Assembly (NCBI GenBank): GCA_963695335.1
Contig: OY968764.1
Coordinates: 800,001-864,000, forward strand
DNA length: 64,000 bases
Source: an uncultured bacterium
GTDB lineage: Bacteria > Babelota > Babeliae > Babelales > Vermiphilaceae
Direction: 5' to 3'
The notes beneath the pieces are model-generated. The model was not told the DNA's origin, ran no database searches, and worked only from the letters and a program-made list of their open reading frames with translations. How positions within the stretch are numbered: the stretch's first letter is position 1; every line of letters starts with the position of its first letter. Shown here one piece after another: positions 5,267 through 60,286 of this stretch. The translations under genes and the position numbers were made by a program.

Positions 5267-5278
5267 AAATTTTTTAAT

Positions 5279-5299
5279 CCTTCGACAAGCTCAGGACGA
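5279..5299. repeat. REP-like family A, single arm
   Basis: CCTTCGACAAGCTCAGGACGA, identical to the right arm of the 28319-28393 copy. Confidence 0.85.
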
Positions 5300-11527: not shown

Positions 11528-13387
11528 TTATTTCAGATTTAGTTTTTTATTTTTGTCTGCAGTATTTTTGATCAATTGTCCTGTAATAGGATCAGCTTCT
11601 CCAAGATGTATTCCCTGTTTGTTATAAACTTCTAAATGGGCACCTTTTCCTCTGTGAAGAGTGTCTCGGTGATAGAATAAGTTGTCTTTTGTATATACTT
11701 GAGCACCTTTTACTGGGGCTATTTTTGTTTTTTTAAAATGAGTGCTATGCAAAACGATTTCTCGATCTAAAGGTATGCGGTTTTGTTGAATAAATTCTGG
11801 AATTATTTTTTCAATACTATTCTTTAAACCTGATGCCGTAGCTTGTCCCGATCGCTTTAACTTATTGGCATTTGTTGTGGCTTTAAACAGCAACCCTTCA
11901 GGGGTTGTAAGATATTCTTGTGGATTGAACAGAGAACTGTTTTTTGCAAAGGTAATACTTTTTTGTTTAATTGTGTTGCAGAATTTTCCTAATCCACCAA
12001 GTAATCTACTTTGCGCCATTAAGCTGACGCCAACCGCGGTACCATTTTTAACTGCATCGCGTAATGATATTTCTTTGTTATAGATTCTATCAATGACACT
12101 GTTTAATGGTTCAGCGTAATGATTCCATTTATCCTTTGCTTTATCAATATTGGTTATTGCAGTAAACCCAATATCTGCAACGTTATAAAGAACTTTGGAG
12201 AGTTGATATGCAAGTAACGGTTTGCTTGCAACCATAGAAACTGTTGCTTCAATAGGATTGTTCAGAATATCAGTGACTGCTGATTGTATGCCAATTGCAG
12301 CACCTTCAGCAACTGCTTGGCCGTAATCAAGCAGTGTCCAACAAAAATCGGCAATAGTAGTTGCTTTATCGGTAAGACCTTTATGGTTGCAATCAACCAT
12401 TGCCACAGTAAAATCGATTAATGCTTCTTGATGATCATACAAAACTGAAGTTGGTGATAGATGATCAATACGATTAAGTAAATCGAGTGATTCTTGATGA
12501 AGTGCATGTTGTAGTTTATTACCAGAGCATTGTGTAAAACATACTGCGTCATAGTTATATTTATGCAATAATTGCTTAACATTGTTATTGAGATTGTATG
12601 ATGTACTTGTGTAGTGCAGAAAATTATCAGCTCCTGACAAATTATGATATGCATCTAACCGTTTATTAATTGCGGCTGATAATGAAGGCGCATATTCTTG
12701 ATAAATAGATTGTAATTCTTTGTATTCAGATGTTTGTGTTTGAAATGTCTCAAGAGAATGATCGCGCAGAACTGGTTCATTACAAACTGGTTGCTCATGC
12801 TTAAGGTTCTTTAATTGATTGTATAAATAGTGGATGCGTTCTTGTAGGCCTGAGCAATAAGTACCTTTGATGGAGTACCAAATTTTTTGCAACCAATGAA
12901 GATTTTTTAATTCAGCATGTAGCTGTTGGATGGTGCATTTGTAACCTGAATATGTTTGTGTATATTTTACGAATTCATCAAACATATACAAACAGCGCTG
13001 ATTAAGTATTTGGCTTTCTGTGTATCCGTGTGACGAAAAATGTTTTTGAAAATCTTGAGCGTTATATTGTTTAAAATGCTGTTTATAAGAAGGTGATGTG
13101 TTGATATTGTTCCGTAATGGATCATGGGAAAAATCAGCATGTGATGTATGTCTATCATTTTTATAATTTGTTTGATGCCAGGAGTGAACTATTGTGGCAT
13201 GAGAATCTTTTGCAGTGATGGGGATAGATAATAGAGTGACAAAAAATGTATATGATAGATTCCTCTTTGCGCTCGTTCTGAACTTGTTGAAGAATATCTT
13301 CGAGCGCTCTAAGATACCCTTCAACAGGTTCAGGGTGAGCGCATAGATTGTAAAGATAGGTTTATATGGTGCATTCATTTTCATCAC
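11528..13387 (-). CDS. Polymorphic toxin with C-terminal colicin E3-like (cytotoxic rRNase) domain
   Basis: C-terminus YHRDTLH...HLEVYNKQGIHLGEADPITG resembles the ColE3 motif WDxxH.E.E.Y...G.HLG..DP.TG. Confidence 0.75.
   Translation of the reverse strand: MMKMNAPYKPIFTIYALTLNLLKGILERSKIFFNKFRTSAKRNLSYTFFVTLLSIPITAKDSHATIVHSWHQTNYKNDRHTSHADFSHDPLRNNINTSPSYKQHFKQYNAQDFQKHFSSHGYTESQILNQRCLYMFDEFVKYTQTYSGYKCTIQQLHAELKNLHWLQKIWYSIKGTYCSGLQERIHYLYNQLKNLKHEQPVCNEPVLRDHSLETFQTQTSEYKELQSIYQEYAPSLSAAINKRLDAYHNLSGADNFLHYTSTSYNLNNNVKQLLHKYNYDAVCFTQCSGNKLQHALHQESLDLLNRIDHLSPTSVLYDHQEALIDFTVAMVDCNHKGLTDKATTIADFCWTLLDYGQAVAEGAAIGIQSAVTDILNNPIEATVSMVASKPLLAYQLSKVLYNVADIGFTAITNIDKAKDKWNHYAEPLNSVIDRIYNKEISLRDAVKNGTAVGVSLMAQSRLLGGLGKFCNTIKQKSITFAKNSSLFNPQEYLTTPEGLLFKATTNANKLKRSGQATASGLKNSIEKIIPEFIQQNRIPLDREIVLHSTHFKKTKIAPVKGAQVYTKDNLFYHRDTLHRGKGAHLEVYNKQGIHLGEADPITGQLIKNTADKNKKLNLK
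13269..13342. repeat. REP-like family A, full doublet inside the toxin ORF 5' end
   Basis: GCGCTCGTTCTGAACTTGTTGAAG...CTTCAACAGGTTCAGGGTGAGCGC; translated as ALTLNLLKGILERSKIFFNKFRTSA. Confidence 0.85.
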
Positions 13388-19614: not shown

Positions 19615-20856
19615 ATGAAAGTAGTAAGAGTGTCTGTTTTTCAAAAAATAATTATATTGTGTTGTATTTTGGTGCTAAGTTCTACTCATGCAATGGAGTG
19701 TGAACATGAGCTTATCTCTTTTAAATCATTATATGGTGCTCCTTTAATAAGCTTGCATAATGGCAAGCAATGGTTTGCAACATTATCACAAGAAAAACAG
19801 CAACGGATATGTGATCAAATAGAATCGCAAAAAAATAAAGGGCTTACTGCGTTATTGCATATGGTTGCATTACCACAAGATATACAAAAATCTATAGTAG
19901 CGCATTTATTTGAAAATGGTGAATGTCACAAAGCTGCAGATATATTTTGTAAAATTCCTCTCTGTGATGCGCTTAATCGATATCAAGTATCAAGAAAAAT
20001 AGTTCAAAATCCGGAAGCATTTAGTTTTTATAAGGAATCTTCTTTTCCATTGCACGTTATTTTTGAGTATGCAGATGATATCAAGGTATATCATAAGACC
20101 ATGGAGTATCATGACATTGGTTATTCCTCAAGAAAAGAGTTGGAAAGTTTGGAAAGAGTGATGCGAGTATTTAAAAACGCTGTTGGACGAACTAGATATT
20201 TGAAATATCAATTTTATAATAAGCACATTACTTTTGATCATATTAAAAAAGAGTTTTGTGATCAGATGTTGTTGTTGCCGATTGTTATATCGGCATATAT
20301 ATTTTTGATGTTTCCTTTAAGATGGCAGCGAGTTTGTAATCGGTGTAATATTGAGTATAATGCCGCAGCTGATGATTTGAATAAAGCAATCAGTGTTTTT
20401 AATGATAAAGTTGGATATCTGCGTCAAATAACGGGTGGTGATTATGAGTATTGTTCATATACTTACAAGCAAGAGGAAGAACCTATTATTTGGCATGGCG
20501 CGCACTATAAAAAGTGGTCTGGTGTTTTGGGGGTAACGTGGATAGCTTTTCTTTTGGGACTTAAGCATCGAGAGATAGATCGTGCAGTGGGCAAGTTTGG
20601 TGACAAAAATAGTTCTCAAAAAGTACGTTCTATTCTGACTACATTGTCTGGTATGTGTGGTGTGTATACAACAATGTCATGTATTGCGGCACAGTTTGAA
20701 GAAAATTCATTCTATGGGGTTGGTTGTATGACAAGTTTATATATGCTGCTTTGTTCTTGTTATAATGTCTACAAGGTGAAAAGTTTGCAAGAAGATGAGG
20801 TCTCAAGTTGGGATATTCAACCATTATTACAACGTATTAGTATTGAGATAATTTAA
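19615..20856 (+). CDS. Secreted/membrane paralog with F-box-like motif
   Basis: ELISFKSL.G.PLISL.NG, ALPQDIQKSIVAHLF, C-terminal TMs, ends LLQRISIEII. Confidence 0.65.
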   Translation: MKVVRVSVFQKIIILCCILVLSSTHAMECEHELISFKSLYGAPLISLHNGKQWFATLSQEKQQRICDQIESQKNKGLTALLHMVALPQDIQKSIVAHLFENGECHKAADIFCKIPLCDALNRYQVSRKIVQNPEAFSFYKESSFPLHVIFEYADDIKVYHKTMEYHDIGYSSRKELESLERVMRVFKNAVGRTRYLKYQFYNKHITFDHIKKEFCDQMLLLPIVISAYIFLMFPLRWQRVCNRCNIEYNAAADDLNKAISVFNDKVGYLRQITGGDYEYCSYTYKQEEEPIIWHGAHYKKWSGVLGVTWIAFLLGLKHREIDRAVGKFGDKNSSQKVRSILTTLSGMCGVYTTMSCIAAQFEENSFYGVGCMTSLYMLLCSCYNVYKVKSLQEDEVSSWDIQPLLQRISIEII

Positions 20857-20858
20857 TT

Positions 20859-22202
20859 ATGAATAATAAAAATCTGTTGTTACTTATTTTGATGTTTGTG
20901 AATACAGCATCTGCTATGAAGCGTAAAGGTGAGCCACATCGCTGTGAGACTTATGAAAAAAGAAATGAGCTTATTTCGTTTAAATCATTACAAGGTTTTC
21001 CTTTAATAAGTTTGGATAATGGGCAAAAATGGGCAGAAAGATTGTCGGAAACAGAGTTGAAAAAAGTACGTAAACAGATTATGTGGCAAAAAGATGAGCG
21101 GCTTACAGCTTTGTTGCATATGATTGAGCTACCACAAGAGCTACAAAGGCTTATAGCAGCGCATATTTTTGAAGGCTATAAAAAAGTTACCAATCGATCA
21201 AATCCGCTAGAGGTACATATTTTTGACCTTTGTAAAAAAGTTATTAATCTATCAAATCTGCAGGTTTTTGCTGAATATAAAAATGCTGCAGATTTGTTTT
21301 GTACAATGCCTTTATGTGATGTTCTTGATCAATATGATTTATCAATGCAAATATTTCAAGATCCAGAAAAATATAGTGTTAAACCAAATCTTCTTCCATT
21401 GCATCTGATTTTTGAATATGCGCGTGATATCAAGGTGAATCATAATATTCAGGAACGTAAATGCAATATTTGTTCTCAACAAGAGTTGGAGAGCGTGGCA
21501 CGGGTTATGAATGTATTTGGTAAGTATGTTGATCATTATGATTGTCGATATCAATTTTATGATCAACCAATTATGACCATCAATAATTTTAAAAAGCAAT
21601 GGAATGGAGATCAGTTTTGTTTATTACTAGTTTTTTTAGCGACGTATGTGCTTTCAACTTTTCCTGATGGATGCGATTATGTCCTTAATCAAGATAATAT
21701 TGAATTCAATAAGGTGGTATATGAGTTTAATCAAGACCTGAGTCTTTTAGTTCAGAAAACAGGACGCAAATCTTTTTGGGAATCACGTGTTAAAGGGTTG
21801 GATCCGCATGATTGCTTTATAAATGATTTTGGGGCTTGTAAAATTTCTGCTGGAATTGTGATGGCGACCGTGGTTCTCTATTATTGCCATCGGTATCATG
21901 AGTATTGGAGAACAAGTGCTATAGCGATAAGGGAGAGATATTCGCTGAGATTCACCGGAGCTCTTGTGGGATGCTTGGCTTGGGGCACTCTTATTGGATG
22001 GAAAGCTTCATTTTCTATGTTGCTGTACCTTTCATCATGTTTTCCAGGAGGATCTTTTGTTGGCACTGGTTGTATGGCGCTTGTTTATGCAATGGCGTGT
22101 AGTGGTTATAACATACATAAAATGAATCGGTTGCAAGAAGGCTGTGTTTGGCGGCAACATATTCCTGAGTTATTGCAACGTACTGATATTCAAATAATTT
22201 AA
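20859..22202 (+). CDS. Secreted/membrane paralog with F-box-like motif
   Basis: Tandem paralog of 19615; ELPQELQRLIAAHIF; ends LLQRTDIQII. Confidence 0.65.
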   Translation: MNNKNLLLLILMFVNTASAMKRKGEPHRCETYEKRNELISFKSLQGFPLISLDNGQKWAERLSETELKKVRKQIMWQKDERLTALLHMIELPQELQRLIAAHIFEGYKKVTNRSNPLEVHIFDLCKKVINLSNLQVFAEYKNAADLFCTMPLCDVLDQYDLSMQIFQDPEKYSVKPNLLPLHLIFEYARDIKVNHNIQERKCNICSQQELESVARVMNVFGKYVDHYDCRYQFYDQPIMTINNFKKQWNGDQFCLLLVFLATYVLSTFPDGCDYVLNQDNIEFNKVVYEFNQDLSLLVQKTGRKSFWESRVKGLDPHDCFINDFGACKISAGIVMATVVLYYCHRYHEYWRTSAIAIRERYSLRFTGALVGCLAWGTLIGWKASFSMLLYLSSCFPGGSFVGTGCMALVYAMACSGYNIHKMNRLQEGCVWRQHIPELLQRTDIQII

Positions 22203-22211
22203 TACTGTTTT

Positions 22212-23936
22212 CTATCCAAACGTAAATACATATGCATCGATACCTTTTGAACATTGCAGTGTTAGTGTATGTCTGCCATATTTTTCTTTTACATCAATAA
22301 TTTCATACATTTGTGGTTGATGAATTTTGATTGAAGAAACTGGTTTTCCGTCAAGGAAAACCATAATTTGTTGTGGTGTATCGGATTGCGCAACAAGATA
22401 GACATGTGTTGCGATGAAATTTAAGATGATTTCACTGGTATCTTGTTCGCTATGAATATGATCAGGTGCAATGGTCCAGGTGCCTGTTAGGCCAACTTGA
22501 TCATTGCCAAGAGGTTGTGTTGGATATGATTGTTTGCCACGTTCAGAGCCAAGGTAAGTTTCTTGAGTGATGTGTTGTCCTTCGACAGCTTCCGACTTCG
22601 CCAAGGCTTCGTCGGACACGGCAGGACGAGCGGGGGATGGGGTAGGTTTTTTCTCGATAGAAGGCATGTTGAGCAATGCACGGATTGCATTTTCCATTTC
22701 TACGTAATCACCTTCACCAAAATGTGTTTTGACAATGTTGCCATCTTGATTAATCAGATAATGTGCAGGCCAATAATGATTATTGTATGCTTGCCATGTT
22801 TGATAATTATTATCAAGTGCCACAGGATAGGTGATATTAAATCTTTTAACAGCATCTTCTACATGTTGTTTATTTTTTTCAAAAGCAAATTCTGGTGTAT
22901 GAATACCGATGATTTCTAAACCTTTATCTTTGTATTCTTTGTACCATTCAGTAACATGTGGTAATGTGCGAACGCAATTGATACATGAATATGTCCAAAA
23001 ATCGAGAAGTACAACTTTTCCCTTGAGTTGTGCAAGCGTGAGTGGTTTTGAATTAATCCAATCAGTGATGCCAACAAGTTCAGGAGCTTGACGTTCGCTT
23101 TCAGAGCGAACGTAATTTGATTTTTTGAGCATAGTAAGTTCCTTTTGTAGTTTGCTACTGTTTTCGATAGTAATGGAGGGGAATAGGTGCGCAACTTTTT
23201 CTTGGATGAATGTATCAACGTGGAATATCATCGCGAGAGCACTTACGATAATAATGATTCCAAAAATTTGTCTGATGGTATGAGTGTAAGGTGTAAGGGC
23301 AGTCGTTGATTGTATAATTTTTGTGCCACCAAAAGAGATTAATAACATTGGTATTGCTGCGCCGAGGCTATAAGAAAGTGTCATAAGTATGGTGGTAAGC
23401 GTAATTCCTTTTGTTGCAGCAATGACGGTGATGGTTGCCAAAATGGGCCCTGCACAGGGAGTCCAGATAAGACCAAGAGCAATTCCTACAATAAGGCCAG
23501 TAAAAAATTCTACGTACCCCTTGTTTTGCGGTTCAATGTTGGCAGGGGTTTGGCTTGAAGCATTTATTGGTGAGCTTGACGATGTATCGGGAACAATTTT
23601 CTTTTCGATTGAACTGCCAAGTTGCGCTATAAAACTGGTCATTATAGTAAACTTATTTTCTAACCATGGAATGATCATGGTAAGTCCAAAGAAAATTACA
23701 ATCCCGAGTGCAATAGCGCGGAAGATATCAGGAGATATGCCAGTTGCTTCTACAATTGCAGTCATTGCAAGGGTAAAGAATGAGAAGCTTGTAACAAAGC
23801 CGGCAATAATTCCAAATGGTTTAGAATGTGTTCCGTTGCTGCTTGTTGCAAGCAAAAGGGGCGCAATAGAGAGAATGCATGGTGAAAGTATGGTAATAAA
23901 ACCGGCTATAAATGCGAAGATGAGAAGTATGATCAT
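22212..23936 (-). CDS. dipZ: DipZ-type cytochrome c biogenesis protein (CcdA/DsbD TM domain + thioredoxin)
   Basis: SPCIL and WTPCAGPIL TM cysteines; DFWTYSCINC thioredoxin motif; ETYLG; ends AYVFTFG. Confidence 0.88.
   Translation of the reverse strand: MIILLIFAFIAGFITILSPCILSIAPLLLATSSNGTHSKPFGIIAGFVTSFSFFTLAMTAIVEATGISPDIFRAIALGIVIFFGLTMIIPWLENKFTIMTSFIAQLGSSIEKKIVPDTSSSSPINASSQTPANIEPQNKGYVEFFTGLIVGIALGLIWTPCAGPILATITVIAATKGITLTTILMTLSYSLGAAIPMLLISFGGTKIIQSTTALTPYTHTIRQIFGIIIIVSALAMIFHVDTFIQEKVAHLFPSITIENSSKLQKELTMLKKSNYVRSESERQAPELVGITDWINSKPLTLAQLKGKVVLLDFWTYSCINCVRTLPHVTEWYKEYKDKGLEIIGIHTPEFAFEKNKQHVEDAVKRFNITYPVALDNNYQTWQAYNNHYWPAHYLINQDGNIVKTHFGEGDYVEMENAIRALLNMPSIEKKPTPSPARPAVSDEALAKSEAVEGQHITQETYLGSERGKQSYPTQPLGNDQVGLTGTWTIAPDHIHSEQDTSEIILNFIATHVYLVAQSDTPQQIMVFLDGKPVSSIKIHQPQMYEIIDVKEKYGRHTLTLQCSKGIDAYVFTFG
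22578..22632. repeat. Family B nested in family A, in frame in dipZ
   Basis: TCCTTCGACAGCT[TCCGACTTCGCCAAGGCTTCGTCGGACACGG]CAGGACGAGCG, translated ARPAVSDEALAKSEAVEG. Confidence 0.85.
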
Positions 23937-24296: not shown

Positions 24297-25346
24297 ATGA
24301 AAAAAATGAAGGTTGCGGTTCTTGTTTCTGGTGGAGTTGATAGCTCCGTTGCGCTGCAATTGCTCAAAAACCAGGGGCATGATGTAACCGCCTTTTATCT
24401 TAAAATTTGGCTTGAAGATGAACTTTCTTATTTGGGTGATTGCCCATGGGAAAATGATTTGAACTTTGTAAAACAGGTGTGCGATCAGCTGGAAGTTCCG
24501 CTTGAAGTGGTATCTTTGCAAAAAGAGTATAAAGATGAAGTGGTAGCCTATACTGTTGCAGAGGTTGAGGCAGGCCGCACCCCAAATCCTGATATTTTAT
24601 GTAATCAACGTATTAAATTTGGTCTTTTCTTGGATAAAATAGATGCAAGCTTTGAAAAAGTTGCTTCTGGGCATTATGCACAAAGCCGTGAAAAAGATGG
24701 CATTGTTGAACTTGTGCAATCGCCGGATCCAGTTAAAGATCAAACTTATTTTTTATCCCATTTGAGTCAACAACAGTTGCAACGTGTGATGTTCCCCATT
24801 GGCCATTTACAAAAAAGTGAAGTGCGTGCATTAGCGCATGAATTTAATTTACCCAATAAAGATCGCAAAGATAGCCAGGGAATATGCTTTTTAGGCAAGT
24901 TTAAGTTTAGTGATTTTATTAAACATCATCTTGGTACGCAAACTGGTGCTATGATAGAAGTTGAAACCGGTAAACTCATGGGAACTCACAATGGATTCTG
25001 GTTTTATACCATTGGCCAACGGCAAGGTCTTGGGCTTGGTGGCGGACCGTGGTATGTTGTTGCAAAAGATATTGATAAAAATATCGTTTTCATTTCCCGT
25101 AATTATTATGATGATGCAAAAGAACGTAATAGTTTCAGTATCAAAAAAATTCACTGGTTGAGTGAGTTGCATTCAGGGAAAAACAATTTTGCAGTTAAAT
25201 TGCGTCACGGAGCACAGCGTTATGAATGTATTATTAACGGGCAAGTAGTGACACTTTCTGGGCGTGACCAGGGGATTGCTCCGGGGCAGTATGCAGTGTT
25301 TTATGATGGTGATGTATGTGTGGGTAGTGCGGTAATTACACAGTAG
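24297..25346 (+). CDS. mnmA: tRNA 2-thiouridylase MnmA
   Basis: SGGVDSS, TPNPD..CN..IKF, SGHYA, KDQTYFL, DSQGICF. Confidence 0.96.
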   Translation: MKKMKVAVLVSGGVDSSVALQLLKNQGHDVTAFYLKIWLEDELSYLGDCPWENDLNFVKQVCDQLEVPLEVVSLQKEYKDEVVAYTVAEVEAGRTPNPDILCNQRIKFGLFLDKIDASFEKVASGHYAQSREKDGIVELVQSPDPVKDQTYFLSHLSQQQLQRVMFPIGHLQKSEVRALAHEFNLPNKDRKDSQGICFLGKFKFSDFIKHHLGTQTGAMIEVETGKLMGTHNGFWFYTIGQRQGLGLGGGPWYVVAKDIDKNIVFISRNYYDDAKERNSFSIKKIHWLSELHSGKNNFAVKLRHGAQRYECIINGQVVTLSGRDQGIAPGQYAVFYDGDVCVGSAVITQ

Positions 25347-25350
25347 TATC

Positions 25351-25962
25351 ATGAAAAAAATTAATCTTAAAAAATTTACGCTTGCCATATTTCAGCATCT
25401 GCCTGAAACAGAAAAGCGTATCACTATTCCAACACTTTTCACGCTTTCACGCATTGTTGTTATTCCGATTATCATTGGCGCTATGATTACAAATTCATGG
25501 GGATGTGCATTTTTTTTCTTTGTTTTCGCATGTTTGACTGATGTTGTTGATGGTCTTTTGGCGCGCTATTTGAATGAGAAAACATTTCTTGGTGCATGTC
25601 TTGATCCAATAGCGGATAAACTGTTATTGATATCATGTTTTTTTACATTGGCTTTTATATCAACGCCACTGTTTTCTATTCCACGCTGGTTTGTTTTGTT
25701 TGTCGTAAGTAAAGAAGTTATTCAAATAGCTGGAGCAATTATTATTTATGCGATTCGTGGTCACCTGAATGTGCAGCCGACAATTTTGGGTAAAACAACA
25801 ACTTTTATCCAGATGCTTTTTATTATATGGCTTTTTGCATGCTACTTTTTTTGTTGGGTGCCTATTAAAACGTATTACACAATGCTTGGTATTATGATAT
25901 TTTTTATGAGTGGTACATTTATGCAATATGCACGCATTGGTTTATTTAAAACAGTAAGATAA
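25351..25962 (+). CDS. CDP-alcohol phosphatidyltransferase (PgsA-like)
   Basis: TD..DG..AR......LGA.LDPIADK signature. Confidence 0.9.
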   Translation: MKKINLKKFTLAIFQHLPETEKRITIPTLFTLSRIVVIPIIIGAMITNSWGCAFFFFVFACLTDVVDGLLARYLNEKTFLGACLDPIADKLLLISCFFTLAFISTPLFSIPRWFVLFVVSKEVIQIAGAIIIYAIRGHLNVQPTILGKTTTFIQMLFIIWLFACYFFCWVPIKTYYTMLGIMIFFMSGTFMQYARIGLFKTVR

Positions 25963-25965
25963 TTC

Positions 25966-26385
25966 ATGAAAAAATACGTTGGTTTTTTTGCCCTTATGAT
26001 TGGCATCTGTAGTGCTTGTTCTTTGGAGCAAGAGCAAGAGCTTATTATTGTTCCCAAAAATAAAAAAAAATATGTTTCAAAAGAGCAATGTATAGAGCTT
26101 AAAATAGATGCAGTTGTTGTGTTGAACGAACTTAATAGATCACTTAATAATTTGCGGCAAACCGTTGATGCTATTCAAAAAGAAGATCTGCAGATGTTGA
26201 GTGATTATGCTGATGGTGAAAAGGAATGCTTTTTCAAGCGTGCAGGTAAAGTTGGGTTGACCAATTATCATGCTAAAGAAACAAAAAAAACGCATGATTT
26301 AGAGCGATATGCACGTAAAATTAATAAAATACAGCAAGATCTTCATTTTCTCTGCATGGAAATGCAAAAAATTCAGTCTGAATAA
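25966..26385 (+). CDS. Hypothetical secreted protein or lipoprotein
   Basis: Signal peptide with Cys; coiled-coil-like. Confidence 0.55.
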   Translation: MKKYVGFFALMIGICSACSLEQEQELIIVPKNKKKYVSKEQCIELKIDAVVVLNELNRSLNNLRQTVDAIQKEDLQMLSDYADGEKECFFKRAGKVGLTNYHAKETKKTHDLERYARKINKIQQDLHFLCMEMQKIQSE

Positions 26386-26447: not shown

Positions 26448-28250
26448 TTGCATGCATTTTATACAAGGAAAACAGCCGTGAATAGAGTAAGAAATTTATT
26501 ATTATTTTTATCTTTGGTCATAGTACCTTTTTGTGGTGCATCTTATGCATCTTCCCCTCTCGAATTTAAGCAGGCAGTAGCACGATATATAAAACATACA
26601 GATATTGATTGTTTGCAACATGTTCAACGCCATGTTGATGACAATGTGCCGTATAAAAAAGAGTTACGATATTTACTGAAAAACTATAATACCATTTCTA
26701 CGTCTGCTTTGCTTTCTCGTCTCCGTTCAGCTCATCAAGAAATGGTCAAGTATGAATCTGATGTTACGAGTGATGTTTATAAAAAATATGAGCAAATATC
26801 AAGCGCACTTTTATTAATTTGTGCGCAATCTTTTTTTTATGATGTGCGTAACCAAATTTTGAATGCATTGGATGAAATTGATCAGCTTATGATGTATTGG
26901 CGCTATCAGCAGCATCATCAACTGAGTTATTTTTTTAGCAAATCTCCAACCAAATGGATTATGGGAAAGTCTCAAGCAAAAGAGATTGCATATAATATTG
27001 TTCAATTAGAGCGTAAGCAGAGTGAATTATATACATTGTTGGGAGCATTAGCTGGGCATGCGCATGCGTTAACGGTTTGTAATGTTACGTATGATGAATG
27101 TTATAAGTGGGTAAATGGATTGTTGACGGTTTTATCTCATAATCATGATGCTTCTGCTGATAATGTTCAATTTGATGATATTGCAGCTCAATTAGCATTG
27201 AGAATGAAAAAGGTAGATTCATTTGCGCATGATCTTTTACGATCGCTTAATGCTGTAAGAAAATCGAGTCATTTTACGCAACATTGGATGGCATATACAG
27301 CAATGTTGGCGGCAACTGGATATGTGGCGCATTATCATGCGAATAATCCTGATGTTATACCAGCCGCAGTTCAAAGAACAGGGGCTTTTGCACAAGGCGT
27401 AGTTACGAGTGTGGTTGTTGATCCATTGACCGATCTTTATAAAGTCTTCTTTGGAATAGATGCTAAAGGAGCAGTTGATAATATAGAGAAACGCGTTGAT
27501 GAGATAGAAAAGTTAGCAAGTAATGTCAAAGCAAATGTAGCAAATATAAGTAAAGATAATGCTAAATCTTTACGGCAATATGCTGAAGATATTTTAGAGC
27601 AAACACTGACAAAAATGAATATTGCTAATAAAGATCAGATACTTTCAGATGTAGCAAATAATGATTTAGCTTCATTGAACGCATTGTGTGAAAAAACTGG
27701 CTGGTCAGCATGGACGTTTGATAATCGTCTTGATCAAGAGACTGTTCGTATTCTTTTGTTGGTGGATGAAATATTGAATTTATTGATACCATATCTTGAT
27801 TTATTAGACCAAAATATTTTGCCATTAACTCAGGAAATAGGATTGTTATTTGTTGATTTGGGGCATATCGTTGGTGATTTTATTAAAAATAATTTTTGGA
27901 CGGCTAAACTTACTGCATTTACCCCATTAGCTGCTGCATGTATTGGTACGGTTAAAACATATAAATGGGCAACAGCTCGTGATTATTCACCAATACGTAT
28001 TGCACTTGCAGATGTTAATGCTTTATTAATAGAATCGGGAACACAGCTGAATGATTATGCTTACGGGAAATTGCTGTATTTGGTATTTAAATTACGTCAT
28101 AGAGCAAGTTCATTAAAAGATCCGTTAGCGCATGAATTTTTAGCTGATGTAGCAAAACTTGAATCTAAACAGTATGGATCGGATACAAAACATAGTATTG
28201 TTGAGAACATGTTTAATAAGTATGCGTTTTTAGGACGTATTTCTGTGTAA
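26448..28250 (+). CDS. Nca2/DGS1-like membrane protein, paralog 1
   Basis: YW..........SP.KW; RKSSHFTQHW + TM; V.DPL; C-terminal IR.AL.DV..LL...YGKLLY.V..L...EFL.D...L...K..IV..M...Y; probable start at GTG 26478. Confidence 0.65.
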   Translation: MHAFYTRKTAVNRVRNLLLFLSLVIVPFCGASYASSPLEFKQAVARYIKHTDIDCLQHVQRHVDDNVPYKKELRYLLKNYNTISTSALLSRLRSAHQEMVKYESDVTSDVYKKYEQISSALLLICAQSFFYDVRNQILNALDEIDQLMMYWRYQQHHQLSYFFSKSPTKWIMGKSQAKEIAYNIVQLERKQSELYTLLGALAGHAHALTVCNVTYDECYKWVNGLLTVLSHNHDASADNVQFDDIAAQLALRMKKVDSFAHDLLRSLNAVRKSSHFTQHWMAYTAMLAATGYVAHYHANNPDVIPAAVQRTGAFAQGVVTSVVVDPLTDLYKVFFGIDAKGAVDNIEKRVDEIEKLASNVKANVANISKDNAKSLRQYAEDILEQTLTKMNIANKDQILSDVANNDLASLNALCEKTGWSAWTFDNRLDQETVRILLLVDEILNLLIPYLDLLDQNILPLTQEIGLLFVDLGHIVGDFIKNNFWTAKLTAFTPLAAACIGTVKTYKWATARDYSPIRIALADVNALLIESGTQLNDYAYGKLLYLVFKLRHRASSLKDPLAHEFLADVAKLESKQYGSDTKHSIVENMFNKYAFLGRISV

Positions 28251-28272
28251 AAAAAATGATTTGATGACGAGT

Positions 28273-28302
28273 AAAGGTGTAACTTTGAGTTGCACCTTTT
28301 TT
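28273..28302 (+). terminator. Intrinsic terminator
   Basis: AAAGGTGTAAC-TTTGA-GTTGCACCTTTTTT. Confidence 0.7.
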
Positions 28303-28318
28303 AATGAATTTTTATTCC

Positions 28319-28393
28319 GCGCTCGTCCTGAGCTTGTCGAAGGATTTCTTCGAGCGCTCGAAAGATATCCTTCGACAAGCTCAGGACGAGCGC
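28319..28393. repeat. REP-like family A, near-perfect 75-bp palindrome (intergenic reference copy)
   Basis: GCGCTCGTCCTGAGCTTGTCGAAGGAT...TCGAGCGCTCGA...ATCCTTCGACAAGCTCAGGACGAGCGC. Confidence 0.92.
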
Positions 28394-28505
28394 AGAGAGT
28401 AGTATGTTGTTTAGTGAAAGATGTTATAAGCTAGCTTGTTCAGCAGTATATTGACTATACTGCTTGTAAGATATTTTATTCTTATATAAAAAAAGGGGGG
28501 TAGTC

Positions 28506-30023
28506 GTGAAATTATATAGTAAAAGTTTATCTATTTTGTTGGTAATCATTTCTTTTTCTCTGTACACATCTCAAAGGCTACCAGTTGTTCCCATTATTTC
28601 AACCGTTCCAGAAGCAATTGTTGCGTTGCGAAAGATTATTATAAGTGTTCCAATTGATGATGCTGTAGCTTTACAAAGTTATGAAAAAGCACAAAGTAAT
28701 GCGATTGTTCAGTGTGCAAAAGTTTTATATGATGCTGCTTATGCGCAAATTTTAGATGCATTGCAAGAAATAGATGCTCGTCTTGTGTATTGGAGATACC
28801 AAAAGAATCATCCATGGAGATATTTTGTGACAAAAAACCCGGTGAAATGGGTTACGGGCGCTTCTCAGGATGTTGAGATCAATAATAATATTGAGCAATT
28901 ACAAAGCCATCAGGGAGAGCTGTATGTTCTTTTGGGACAACTTTCTGAGTATGGTAATGTGTACGATCATAAACATAAAACTTTATTCAGGAGCGATTAC
29001 GTACAAGGTTATGCGTGGGTTGATGGATTGTTGGATATATTGGTACGCATAAAAGTTTCAGTAAAAAGTTTTGATGGCATGTCAGCATTTATTGCTCGAG
29101 TAACGCTGTTAAAAGCAAAACTTGAACGCGTGCGTTTTTTCAAAAATCAGATTTTATCAGAGATGAATGATACCCAAATGCCAGCGCATCTTGAGCGTAA
29201 TTGGTTAAAGTATGGTGCTGTAGCAGCCATGTTAGGATGGGGATATCAAGCAAATGCATTGGAAAAATTATCAAATGCTTTTGCGTATGTAACAAATGGA
29301 ATGAAAGAATATGTTATTACTCCTGTGGAAAATGTGATGAAAGATGTTTTTGGTAGAAGTAATCATGATGTGAGTAATGAATTATTGGTATCTCAAGAAG
29401 AAATTACTATAGCTCAAAATACAATTGCAAAGTTTCTTTCAGATTTAGTGACTAGTGGTGATATTACTGCAGAACAAGAGAAAGTAATGCTGAGTACAAT
29501 AGAATCAGGTAAAAGTGAATCTTTATATGCATTAATGAATGAGTTGTGGGATAAGGGTCTTTTTTATAAAAGTAAATTTTTGACTTCGGGGCTTTTGTGG
29601 GGAGAGTTTAAATTTTTAATGACAGGAAAACGGTTACAAGAGAAGCTTGCAAATATTGAAAATCAGTATATTGGAATTGGTAAAATTGCAGTTTTAACAC
29701 CGACTCTTTTGAGCAGTTGGCTTGCTTATAGAGGTTATAAAGTCTTTACCGAAAAAGATTATACACCAATACGCCGAGCACTTGTTGATATTAATTCTCT
29801 TTTTGTTGATGCAACAAGACCACTCGATGATGAACAGTATGGTAAAATGTTGTATTTAATTTTTGATCTTAAAAAACGAGCAGTGATTGATGTGCCATTA
29901 ACAGATCGTGCTGATTTTATTAATGATTTAAATCGTATTGAATCAAAAGAGTTTAATGTTGCTGCTAAGCGAGCGATTGTCGATGATATGTTTAGAAAAT
30001 ATTCATTTCTGAAGTTAAGTTAA
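28506..30023 (+). CDS. Nca2/DGS1-like membrane protein, paralog 2
   Basis: Aligns with the 26448 gene (YWRYQ, LYxLLG, DYxPIRxAL, YGKxLYLxF, MFxKYxFL). Confidence 0.65.
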   Translation: MKLYSKSLSILLVIISFSLYTSQRLPVVPIISTVPEAIVALRKIIISVPIDDAVALQSYEKAQSNAIVQCAKVLYDAAYAQILDALQEIDARLVYWRYQKNHPWRYFVTKNPVKWVTGASQDVEINNNIEQLQSHQGELYVLLGQLSEYGNVYDHKHKTLFRSDYVQGYAWVDGLLDILVRIKVSVKSFDGMSAFIARVTLLKAKLERVRFFKNQILSEMNDTQMPAHLERNWLKYGAVAAMLGWGYQANALEKLSNAFAYVTNGMKEYVITPVENVMKDVFGRSNHDVSNELLVSQEEITIAQNTIAKFLSDLVTSGDITAEQEKVMLSTIESGKSESLYALMNELWDKGLFYKSKFLTSGLLWGEFKFLMTGKRLQEKLANIENQYIGIGKIAVLTPTLLSSWLAYRGYKVFTEKDYTPIRRALVDINSLFVDATRPLDDEQYGKMLYLIFDLKKRAVIDVPLTDRADFINDLNRIESKEFNVAAKRAIVDDMFRKYSFLKLS

Positions 30024-30162
30024 AGAAAAATACCGCTTAGCAAAAGATATTTTTTTGCTATTATCAGAAAAGGTGATATCGTAAAAATGGTATAACGATA
30101 TCATCTTTTTTTTGATAAAATATAAGTATTATACACATCCTAGTATTAGTGAAAGGCCAAAC

Positions 30163-30723
30163 ATGGCAGCATTTAATCGTATTATTATTGTTGGTAATTT
30201 AACCAGAGATCCTGAGTATCGCACACTTCCGTCTGGACAAGGCGTATCTCGTCTTGGATTAGCAACTAATCGTCAATTTAAAAATAAGCAAACTGGCAGC
30301 TTGGTACAAGAAGTATGCTACATCGATGTTGATGTGTGGGGAGCACAAGCAGAAAGTTGTCGTCAGTATTTGCAAAAAGGTCGTCCAGTGTTGATTGAAG
30401 GTCGTCTTAAATTAGATTCATGGGATGATCAAACAGGGCAAAAGCGCAGCAAGCATTCTATTGTTGCAGAACGTGTTGTGTTTTTATCAAATGGAGCTTC
30501 TGCTGAAGCATCATTTGGTGGATCTATGGCAGATGATGCTGACAATGGTGTTCAGCTTAACCCAAATAATCCGGTTGAACGTGATTTGCTTGCGCAATTA
30601 GAAAAAGCACAAACAAGGGTGAAAGCAACTAAAGCTGCTAAAAAAGAAGAAGCTCCTGCCCCTTCAACAGGTGAAATTGATTTTCAGGATGAGCCCCCAT
30701 TTGAAGATAACTTACCATTCTAA
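30163..30723 (+). CDS. ssb: Single-stranded DNA-binding protein
   Basis: N...I.GNLTRDPE, YL.KG..V.IEGRL, acidic tail DNLPF. Confidence 0.96.
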   Translation: MAAFNRIIIVGNLTRDPEYRTLPSGQGVSRLGLATNRQFKNKQTGSLVQEVCYIDVDVWGAQAESCRQYLQKGRPVLIEGRLKLDSWDDQTGQKRSKHSIVAERVVFLSNGASAEASFGGSMADDADNGVQLNPNNPVERDLLAQLEKAQTRVKATKAAKKEEAPAPSTGEIDFQDEPPFEDNLPF

Positions 30724-34541: not shown

Positions 34542-35210
34542 TTATCCTCGAGCAGCAGCTCCTGCAGCGTAACCAGCTGAATAGTCAGCGCTTTGCGCTG
34601 AACCTTCAGCTCTATCAGCCGCATCCATAGCATCTTGCGCTGCTTGCGCCGCTCTATCTGCTTCTTCTTGAGATGCATAGTAGTAACCATCATAACCAGA
34701 TTGGTACGGATATGCAGTACTCCATGCAAGTGCATATGTAAGACCAAGGGTACCTAAGAACAATCCATAGCCACCCCAAGCTCCCCATCCACCCCAGTCG
34801 CCGCCATGACCATAATAATTGTTAACGGTCGTGTTACGGTTACCTCTGTTACCACGATTACCTTGGCCGCGATTTCCTCTGTTGCCTTGACCTCTACCAG
34901 CACCAGTACCTCTACCACCTCTATGTGCAACGTTTGCGCCGCCTCTACCTGCAGTACCTCTACCTCTGTTTGCTACGCCTGCACCACCTCTACCACGAGC
35001 ACCGCCCATACGGCCGCCACCCATGCTTCTACCACCGCCACCACCAAATCCTCTACCTCCACCACCCATACTTCTACCACCGCCACCACGTCCTCCACCA
35101 CCGCCGCCTCTACCGCCGCCACCTCCGCCACCGCGTGGGAATGCATTTTGTGTAACTAATAGTATGCTAGCAAGTATGCATACCATATTCATTAATTTTT
35201 TTCTGTTCAT
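34542..35210 (-). CDS. Secreted Gly/Arg-rich low-complexity protein
   Basis: Signal peptide, RGG repeats, NR repeats, Gly/Trp/Tyr segment, Ala-rich tail. Confidence 0.7.
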   Translation of the reverse strand: MNRKKLMNMVCILASILLVTQNAFPRGGGGGGGRGGGGGGRGGGGRSMGGGGRGFGGGGGRSMGGGRMGGARGRGGAGVANRGRGTAGRGGANVAHRGGRGTGAGRGQGNRGNRGQGNRGNRGNRNTTVNNYYGHGGDWGGWGAWGGYGLFLGTLGLTYALAWSTAYPYQSGYDGYYYASQEEADRAAQAAQDAMDAADRAEGSAQSADYSAGYAAGAAARG

Positions 35211-35252
35211 GAAATCTTCCTTTTTTAATTGTATGTATAGAATGAACTTTTT

Positions 35253-35594
35253 TTATTCATTAATAATTGCTTCTTCTGTAGCAAGTATCGGTAATATTGC
35301 ATATTCACCATCATCATAATCATCATAGTAGCCATCTCCATAATATCCGCCATCATATCCATGACCATGTTCATGACCATATCTACTTCTATGCTCATGA
35401 CCTCTGCTCACATGACCTCTATTACCAGCGTGGCTTGTTCCACTTACATGGCTTTCACCACCTCTGCTACCGTGTGCACTGCCAGTGCTATGTCCGCCAC
35501 TGTTTCCACCGCCTCGAGTTAATGTATCTTGTGCTAGAAAGAGCATACTCATAAATATGCTCATTATTCCTAGCCTTTTAATGTTTTTATTCAT
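35253..35594 (-). CDS. Secreted Gly/His/Tyr-rich protein
   Basis: Signal peptide followed by RGGG, as in the neighbouring gene; AAGGA RBS. Confidence 0.65.
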   Translation of the reverse strand: MNKNIKRLGIMSIFMSMLFLAQDTLTRGGGNSGGHSTGSAHGSRGGESHVSGTSHAGNRGHVSRGHEHRSRYGHEHGHGYDGGYYGDGYYDDYDDGEYAILPILATEEAIINE

Positions 35595-60224: not shown

Positions 60225-60265
60225 GAGCGCTCGAAGATATCCTTCAACAGGTTCAGGACGAGCGC
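60225..60265. repeat. Family A half element after acpP
   Basis: GAGCGCTCGAAGATATCCTTCAACAGGTTCAGGACGAGCGC. Confidence 0.85.
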
Positions 60266-60286
60266 AGGATAGAATTAATTAAATAA

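Follow-up and report, generated by a model that had tools for sequence, protein, structure and literature searches.

The 64,000-nucleotide stretch analysed here (the window; positions 800,001 to 864,000 of contig OY968764.1, assembly GCA_963695335.1) comes from an uncultured member of the family Vermiphilaceae in the Babelota, obligate parasites of protists. It carries on its forward strand two adjacent open reading frames (ORFs), A (26448-28250) and B (28506-30023), whose products we compared with the eukaryotic protein family Nca2/DGS1. ORF A encodes 600 amino acids (aa) if read from a TTG codon; a GTG at 26478, with AAGGA eight bases upstream, is the more likely start and would give 590 aa. 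ORF B encodes 505 aa from a GTG that follows GGGGGG. The two are paralogues, as the first-pass annotation had said (32% identity over 237 residues, E 5e-34; 39% over 112 residues, E 2e-22), and no third copy was found in the 1.37-Mb single-contig genome. On the sequence evidence, both genes are confirmed as full-length homologues of eukaryotic Nca2/DGS1, and the pair is best described as a derived, duplicated form of a real and old bacterial branch of that family.

Both proteins begin with a signal-peptide-like N terminus, predicted by a simple hydropathy rule: in A (26478-26549; hydropathy 1.99) a basic start is followed by a hydrophobic stretch and a small-residue cleavage-like site, and the corresponding segment of B (28506-28568) has a hydropathy of 1.61. 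The YW...YF..K.P.KW block lies at 26895-26957 in A, where its Y, W and P are invariant also in 10 full-length eukaryotic rows, and at 28788-28850 in B. Farther along are two helices at the positions (TM1 and TM2) of what we take to be a two-segment membrane topology in the eukaryotic protein. The first follows a P.H..R.W motif in A (27285-27341; 29202-29258 in B), and the second surrounds a near-invariant proline in A (27900-27956; 29670-29726 in B). Their best 19-residue Kyte-Doolittle means are 0.51 and 1.11 in A and 0.57 and 1.38 in B, which is weakly hydrophobic against eukaryotic means of 1.04 and 1.73, and the positions are conserved in both proteins; the Babelota mean at the TM2 position is 1.55-1.59. 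A conserved helical domain completes each protein (27984-28238 in A; 29754-30020 in B, where it is modelled as a four-helix bundle with pLDDT above 90). The first-pass annotation had described a fixed order of motif blocks with intervening transmembrane segments. The order holds for 9/9 patterns in A and 7/9 in B as strictly written, the two misses in B being a one-residue offset or spacing with the residues themselves present, but the supposed transmembrane segments are weakly hydrophobic and A probably starts at the later GTG.

Taken one at a time, the two proteins exceed the gathering score of the Pfam NCA2 family (PF08637) narrowly, with 23.2 and 24.7 bits against 20.6, and a six-frame search of the genome by itself reached 19.6 bits, below the cut-off. 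With a hidden Markov model built from fungal sequences only, A and B scored 43.2 and 48.6 bits and were the sole significant matches in the genome; the next of 2,038 genome ORFs reached 8.0 bits, and shuffled or reversed controls (n = 402) at most 2.8. Compared profile to profile, the bacterial and fungal sequences match with E 1.7e-39 and probability 100; the aligned region, 448 columns, begins ahead of the YW block and runs to the C terminus. A and B singly align end to end with the fungal profile (probability 94 over 427 columns and 96 over 410 columns, respectively); by these alignments the homology spans the whole mature protein. A bacteria-only profile (22 sequences) picked two proteins from 8,000 candidates, one of them a fungal PF08637 protein (E 3.8e-32). 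This fungal protein in turn led to 76 matches, mostly named fungal Nca2, 19 of which made up the fungal alignment. PF08637 itself is matched by 38 of 52 diverse bacterial homologues (E <= 0.01; best E 8.4e-22), with scores of as much as 118 bits for the least diverged bacterial relatives, which cover positions 9-289, almost all of the model. In an embedding search, eukaryotic NCA2 clusters came back at 0.92-0.97, and one of these bears the name DGS1; because the recognition value of that search is low, we count it as supporting evidence only. A representative search found 1,693 clusters at E <= 0.001, the best 150 of which were all bacterial-type, with no eukaryotic rows, and NCBIfam holds no family matching the two proteins. 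The eukaryotic side of these comparisons is fungal Nca2 together with PF08637, rather than yeast Nca2 and Arabidopsis DGS1 aligned directly. The first-pass assignment to Nca2/DGS1 is thus borne out by profile, embedding and tree evidence, and the PF08637 comparison suggested with it placed both proteins above the gathering threshold.

Two labels in public collections deserve mention. Several Kickxellales Nca2 proteins (P0215, P0228, P0229, P0232 and others) are named 'Intraflagellar transport protein 88', an apparent mis-annotation. Most labels in the nearest embedding cluster (ESM Atlas; 479 aa, 57 members) are Rotifera, though animals are reported to be without DGS1 orthologues; transfer into rotifers, or bacterial sequence within rotifer assemblies, is possible.

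Distribution and descent of the bacterial branch

Searched with a mixed bacterial and eukaryotic profile, the gene is present in 100 of 261 Babelota genomes (83 of the 189 of high quality). The positive genomes fall in nine families (15/16, 14/14, 10/10, 11/12, 5/5, 2/2, 1/1, 2/4 and 39/79 genomes), and none was found in the other twelve Babelota families, including two sampled at 0/41 and 0/35 genomes. Outside the phylum, the same profile did not find the gene in about 1,270 genomes sampled from other groups, largely host-associated ones, which are named after their centre record and partly overlap (41 genomes covered twice, two genomes unscored; Legionellales and archaea not targeted). These comprised Rickettsiales-centred (0/251), Paracaedibacter-centred (class 0/301, order 0/62), Holospora-centred (0/22), Francisellaceae-centred (class 0/250, order 0/41) and Bacteroidota endosymbiont-like-centred (0/48) samples. 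One marginal match in a Chlamydiae-centred sample (1/300; E 4.1e-4, 18 bits) was rejected, as it lies in an unrelated coiled-coil ORF. No relative was found among viral contigs (four queries) and no match among plasmids (two queries). A scan of a prokaryote genome collection seeded with the fungal core motif gave 116 candidates and 0 confirmed members, a weak result because the scan was for the exact motif only. The bacterial branch of Nca2/DGS1 is real and old, and in the samples searched it is restricted to the Babelota.

In our trees a single branch separates eukaryotic from bacterial rows, with support of 100 in a 52-row tree from which 34 long, partial or redundant rows of an 86-row tree had been dropped; in the 86-row tree one long partial eukaryotic fragment falls on the wrong side. 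The phylogeny that the first-pass annotation had recommended therefore splits the two groups by one branch, in keeping with its suggestion of a bacterial arm of a family regarded as eukaryotic. In the 86-row tree five families each form one group, while the window family and one other are without clean resolution. Taken together, the trees demonstrate one bacterial branch with vertical inheritance. The A and B sequences are sister groups in the 86-row tree with the single copy of genome G007 outside them, and we therefore place the duplication within the genus; the A group is unresolved in the 52-row tree. In 9 of the 11 genomes of the genus two full copies lie side by side, and in a tenth contig ends interrupt the pair; being tandem reflects a duplication at genus level and is not a trait of the family. 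Two other genera (L239:2092-5652 and L075:6383-10481) have tandem copies as well, making three in total; their second copies are very divergent, with 20-25% identity to their neighbour or less.

The surroundings of the gene, which is usually single-copy, were surveyed at 40 loci in six families, drawn from 97 positive genomes, and its company is conserved and housekeeping in kind. Within the family of the window genome pgsA is present in 18/20 loci and ssb in 19/20, and outside it (five other families) pgsA is present in 0/20; in four other families the gene lies directly after rplU in 14/14 loci, and elsewhere outside the window family its neighbours are other housekeeping genes. The CDP-alcohol phosphatidyltransferase gene at 25351-25962, one ORF upstream of A, had been pointed out in the first pass next to its proposal of an effect on lipid flux. 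The neighbour is there, but its linkage is a feature of one family only, and we rejected it as functional evidence (18/20 loci in that family, 0/20 elsewhere, and a Babela cluster that lacks the gene). Both A and B evolve under purifying selection, with ratios of nonsynonymous to synonymous substitution (dN/dS) of 0.16-0.34 versus 0.05-0.13 for mnmA, pgsA, ssb and grpE (three genome pairs, with dS near saturation in two). This selection is weaker than on the housekeeping neighbours and similar to that on nearby exported ORFs without known function.

Conserved residues and predicted fold

Fungal Nca2 and plant DGS1 (PF08637) resemble the bacterial proteins in being collinear over a stretch that opens with the YW block and closes with the C-terminal RMY..Y.FL motif, in the positions of two helices that are hydrophobic in eukaryotes and weakly so in A and B, and in giving predicted all-helical models that end in a four-helix bundle. 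In the bacterial copies, by contrast, a signal-peptide-like N terminus replaces the eukaryotic N-terminal region, and the insert that fungal Nca2 carries after the K.P motif is absent; A and B are also without the central QVQK.KVD...DKLLK.NELNF core, which in eukaryotes stands just before the second hydrophobic helix, and the window genes are duplicated in tandem. Residues common to bacterial and eukaryotic members are, in B numbering, Y95, W96, P112, G144, P226, R231, W233, P273, P399, G446, D474, M495 and F501. Most of these roughly dozen cross-domain residues are W, Y, P, G, F, R or D, a composition that would suit a scaffold better than an active site. The N.LN..L..P pattern of the core motif (..QK.KVD...DKLLK.N.LNF) is found in 14/15 eukaryotic rows, in 0/13 rows of the window genus and 0/19 other rows of its family, both window proteins lacking it, and is partly kept elsewhere, in 8/25 rows of other Babelota families. 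Because this central motif is missing, A and B would be homologues and variants of Nca2/DGS1 rather than functional orthologues. The least diverged bacterial members score 75-149 bits on the fungal model as against 43-49 for the window proteins, and central insertions vary, bacterial members ranging from 416 to 794 aa in length.

The structural model of B (mean pLDDT 81.7) consists of helices throughout: a long bundle of them at the N terminus, a middle part that packs poorly, and the C-terminal four-helix bundle. A fungal model of lower confidence (68.0) has its elements in the same order, a comparison made by order and not by superposition. Searched against the Protein Data Bank, the B model had no Foldseek match at E <= 0.001, and its best VIA match (Z 9.3) was a generic four-helix bundle; matches of the fungal model were likewise to generic bundles (best Z 12.3), with no solved relative. 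The B model had no fold match among viral models, and a sequence search found no solved relative either. A prediction of an A+B complex scored 0.00 and gave no answer.

A candidate role at host mitochondria

The source genome, whose named close relatives belong to Candidatus Babeliales, encodes two ATP/ADP translocases, two secretins (and so a secretion channel), CdsA and an acyltransferase, and no ketoacyl synthase was found in it (94% complete). Translocases, secretins and late lipid steps without fatty-acid synthesis are the pattern that passages of PMC4776705 describe for this phylum of protist parasites, and the retention of late phospholipid enzymes fits with uptake of host acyl chains. 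The enzymes concerned lie at G000:C1:481755-482492 and 694981-695361 (CdsA, acyltransferase) and at 25351-25962 of the window (PgsA-like). Plant DGS1 is described in parts of PMC7865480 and PMC10069894 as a protein of the mitochondrial outer membrane that bridges TOM40/20 and MIC60 and affects lipid composition. According to passages of PMC6561590, the babelote Chromulinavorax destructans, which lacks lipid synthesis and sheds outer-membrane vesicles, replicates within invaginations of an enlarged, intact host mitochondrion that surrounds it; P0112, a protein recorded under the organism name Ca. Chromulinivorax destructor, matches PF08637 (E 5.7e-10). In the annotation of Babela massiliensis (PMC4378268, supplement 9), pgsA, a 136-aa ORF and ssb stand next to one another, and what follows rplU is unrelated; neither slot holds such a gene, and none of the nine supplements of that paper has an NCA2 label. 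The Chromulinivorax member and the empty Babela slots therefore incline us, without firm conviction, towards a host-derived protein that is exported.

Our best reading, held tentatively, is that the proteins are host-derived, exported and act at host mitochondrial membranes. This would give a plausible form to the first-pass proposal of secreted effectors acting on host mitochondria or lipid flux; its export, target and activity are what we infer rather than observe. An ancestor of part of the Babelota would have taken up a host Nca2/DGS1 gene once, long ago, and added a Sec signal peptide, after which the gene descended vertically and was duplicated into A and B in the window genus. A gain of the hydrophobic N terminus is evident from a hydropathy rule, by which 55/57 genome-derived bacterial members have a signal-peptide-like start and 1/66 full-length fungal proteins do; a lipoprotein signal pattern is present in only 2/57 bacterial members. 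The protein would be exported by Sec and, because its internal hydrophobic helices are weak, might not be held in the bacterial inner membrane; its way out would be type II secretion or membrane vesicles. It would then insert in or dock on the host mitochondrial outer membrane, as its eukaryotic relatives do, and mimic or disturb the contact-site role of Nca2/DGS1, its connection with TOM and MICOS, which would help the parasite to keep mitochondria close and to draw ATP and lipid. As the window pair is a derived form without the eukaryotic core motif, a tether or modulator is likelier than a full functional replacement. A host-facing pattern is plausible also from the distribution (gene not found in 161 of the 261 genomes, with whole families empty, and no match in the other prokaryote samples), the tandem copies in three genera and the faster evolution. 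A bolder version is that an early-protist outer-membrane contact-site protein was captured and exported to tether or remodel host mitochondria, that the Chromulinavorax copy drives the wrapping, and that these simple proteins could expose the activity of Nca2/DGS1; we consider it rather doubtful.

Several observations weigh against an exported mitochondrial protein. The same hydropathy rule is passed by 310 of 556 ORFs of at least 300 aa in the source genome, a hydrophobic N terminus is given for 44% of coding sequences of C. destructans in a passage of PMC6561590, and a signal peptide by itself would take a protein only as far as the periplasm. The most conserved eukaryotic motif is missing from the whole window family (0/32 rows, both window proteins included). 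The contrast between Chromulinavorax and Babela is one of two organisms, and Babela could have a copy elsewhere in its genome. Near-complete, single-copy syntenic retention within housekeeping clusters in several families (14/14, 10/10, 15/16) resembles a core cell function more than it does the usual effector. Finally, no mitofilin-family protein was found in the 5 Babelota genomes tested, which would leave only the host to supply any MICOS-type partner.

The strongest alternative, possible though on balance unlikely, is that the protein stays in the parasite envelope, in the periplasm or as an inner-membrane hairpin, as a contact or lipid-uptake scaffold of a fatty-acid auxotroph that builds its membranes from host lipid. 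It stays strong because inheritance is stable and single-copy, within housekeeping clusters, and because a signal peptide says little here: beyond the signal-peptide-like start there is no further sorting evidence, and hydropathy at the TM2 position is kept across the Babelota. The lack of a detected fatty-acid synthase alongside later phospholipid steps would suit such a role, as would the proposal, in a passage of PMC4776705, that TM6 bacteria use host lipids by means not known. An envelope role sits poorly, however, with the 161 of 261 equally dependent relatives in which the gene was not found, with evolution faster than that of the housekeeping neighbours, and with a pgsA linkage confined to one family.

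It is less probable still that the protein is exported but repurposed, acting on another host membrane (vacuole, endoplasmic reticulum) or as a generic helical scaffold after loss of the core motif. The loss itself, the long bacterial branches, the low scores of the window proteins on the fungal model relative to the least diverged members, and the variable central insertions and lengths all agree with this account; set against it, both ends and both hydrophobic positions keep eukaryotic residues, from Y95 through F501.

The direction of transfer is argued by parsimony only, because the trees are unrooted and their eukaryotic side is narrow (ten fungal-type proteins and five metagenomic fragments). 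The family has been reported in fungi, plants and the jakobid Andalucia (part of PMC7050145), and a broad eukaryotic presence versus part of one bacterial order makes a host-derived bacterial gene the best reading of the data. Very unlikely, in our judgement, is the reverse, in which the family is bacterial in origin and eukaryotes obtained Nca2/DGS1 from a Babelota-like partner of the early eukaryote. That restricted bacterial range speaks against it, long bacterial branches are compatible with faster evolution in parasites, and host-to-parasite transfer is a pattern reported for Babelota in passages of PMC4378268. What it can call on is the one rootless branch between the groups and a sampled bacterial diversity greater than the eukaryotic one, the eukaryotic sample being narrow; it can also call on the 301 Alphaproteobacteria-centred, 251 Rickettsiales-centred and 62 and 22 further alphaproteobacterial genomes without a match, on account of which a mitochondrial source is not evident. 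Chance likeness among helical proteins, or eukaryotic contamination, is scarcely credible: the Pfam scores barely over the cut-off and the low recognition value of the embedding search might hint at it, but the genes are intron-free in a single-contig bacterial genome, a bacteria-only profile retrieves fungal Nca2, and it is refuted by the conserved bacterial neighbourhoods, the profile-profile match and the fungus-only model with its controls.

A host-derived protein exported towards mitochondria would have counterparts among the eukaryote-derived proteins of protist parasites, such as the ankyrin and ubiquitin-system proteins of Babelota, the mitochondrial carrier of Babela and the eukaryotic-like effectors of Legionella. 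The likeness lies in a host-type family found in an intracellular bacterium and in a putative Sec signal, type II secretion being the route by which the lineage is known to export proteins; the difference is that Nca2/DGS1 is a structural outer-membrane contact-site protein, retained in one syntenic copy in many families, and not an expanded repeat family or an enzyme. For Chromulinavorax destructans, PMC6561590 describes a candidate for mitochondrial remodelling that only distantly resembles mitofilin. It too is proposed to act on the MICOS contact sites of the host. The statistics behind the Nca2/DGS1 homologue are firm, and the main text of that paper does not mention it.

The family label itself is on record. 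Automatic 'ATP synthase regulation protein NCA2' labels for the TM6 genomes SOIL31 and SOIL82 (PMC4776705, Table S5; 2016) denote the same family in the same phylum, in the supplement only and not in the main text, and we found no analysis of range, origin, export or role; protein collections carry PF08637 on many bacterial members. 'NCA2' is absent from the main texts of PMC4776705, PMC4378268 and PMC12172432. A literature search combining NCA2/DGS1 with Babelota names, MICOS and the Pfam/InterPro accessions found no paper discussing bacterial members, most subscription papers lying outside its coverage. What does not appear to have been recorded is the range of the bacterial members, their full-length homology, their export signal, their history and a connection to the species that wraps itself in the mitochondrion. 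Nca2/DGS1 is seen as a eukaryotic mitochondrial protein whose molecular job is unclear. A bacterial branch of several hundred members, met so far only in these protist parasites and represented in the one species known for mitochondrial wrapping, is a specific candidate for that phenotype and bears on the question of mitochondrial reshaping and lipid supply in Babelota. It also marks residues kept across the domain boundary, and its proteins, compact and predicted well, would suit structural and complementation studies.

Neighbouring genes and repeats

Upstream of A (24297-26385, forward strand) are mnmA, the pgsA-like gene and a 139-aa ORF, and downstream of B is ssb (30112-30723, forward strand). 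The upstream context is conserved only in the family of the window genome, in which the downstream context is conserved as well. Promoter-like sites were rejected as a signal, being fewer than chance (14 vs 30.9). The 255 bases between A and B hold a palindromic repeat of 81 bases (28316-28396) with 71 related loci genome-wide, and it has no bearing on the A and B proteins. Related copies lie elsewhere in the window at 5276-5299, 13268-13314 and 60225-60267, 7 of the 71 loci are inside ORFs of at least 200 aa, and at L062 two copies likewise stand between paralogues A and B. A DipZ-like thiol-disulfide protein (22212-23936, reverse strand) has an odd short segment at about residues 430-455, which may be a palindrome of a different repeat type inserted in frame. 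A second tandem pair (19615-22202, forward strand) encodes proteins of 413 and 447 aa that share an N-terminal block and have signal-like starts and C-terminal hydrophobic segments, with no Pfam match above cut-off. At 34542-35594 (reverse strand), two small proteins have signal-like starts followed by glycine/arginine-rich or glycine/histidine-rich repeats.

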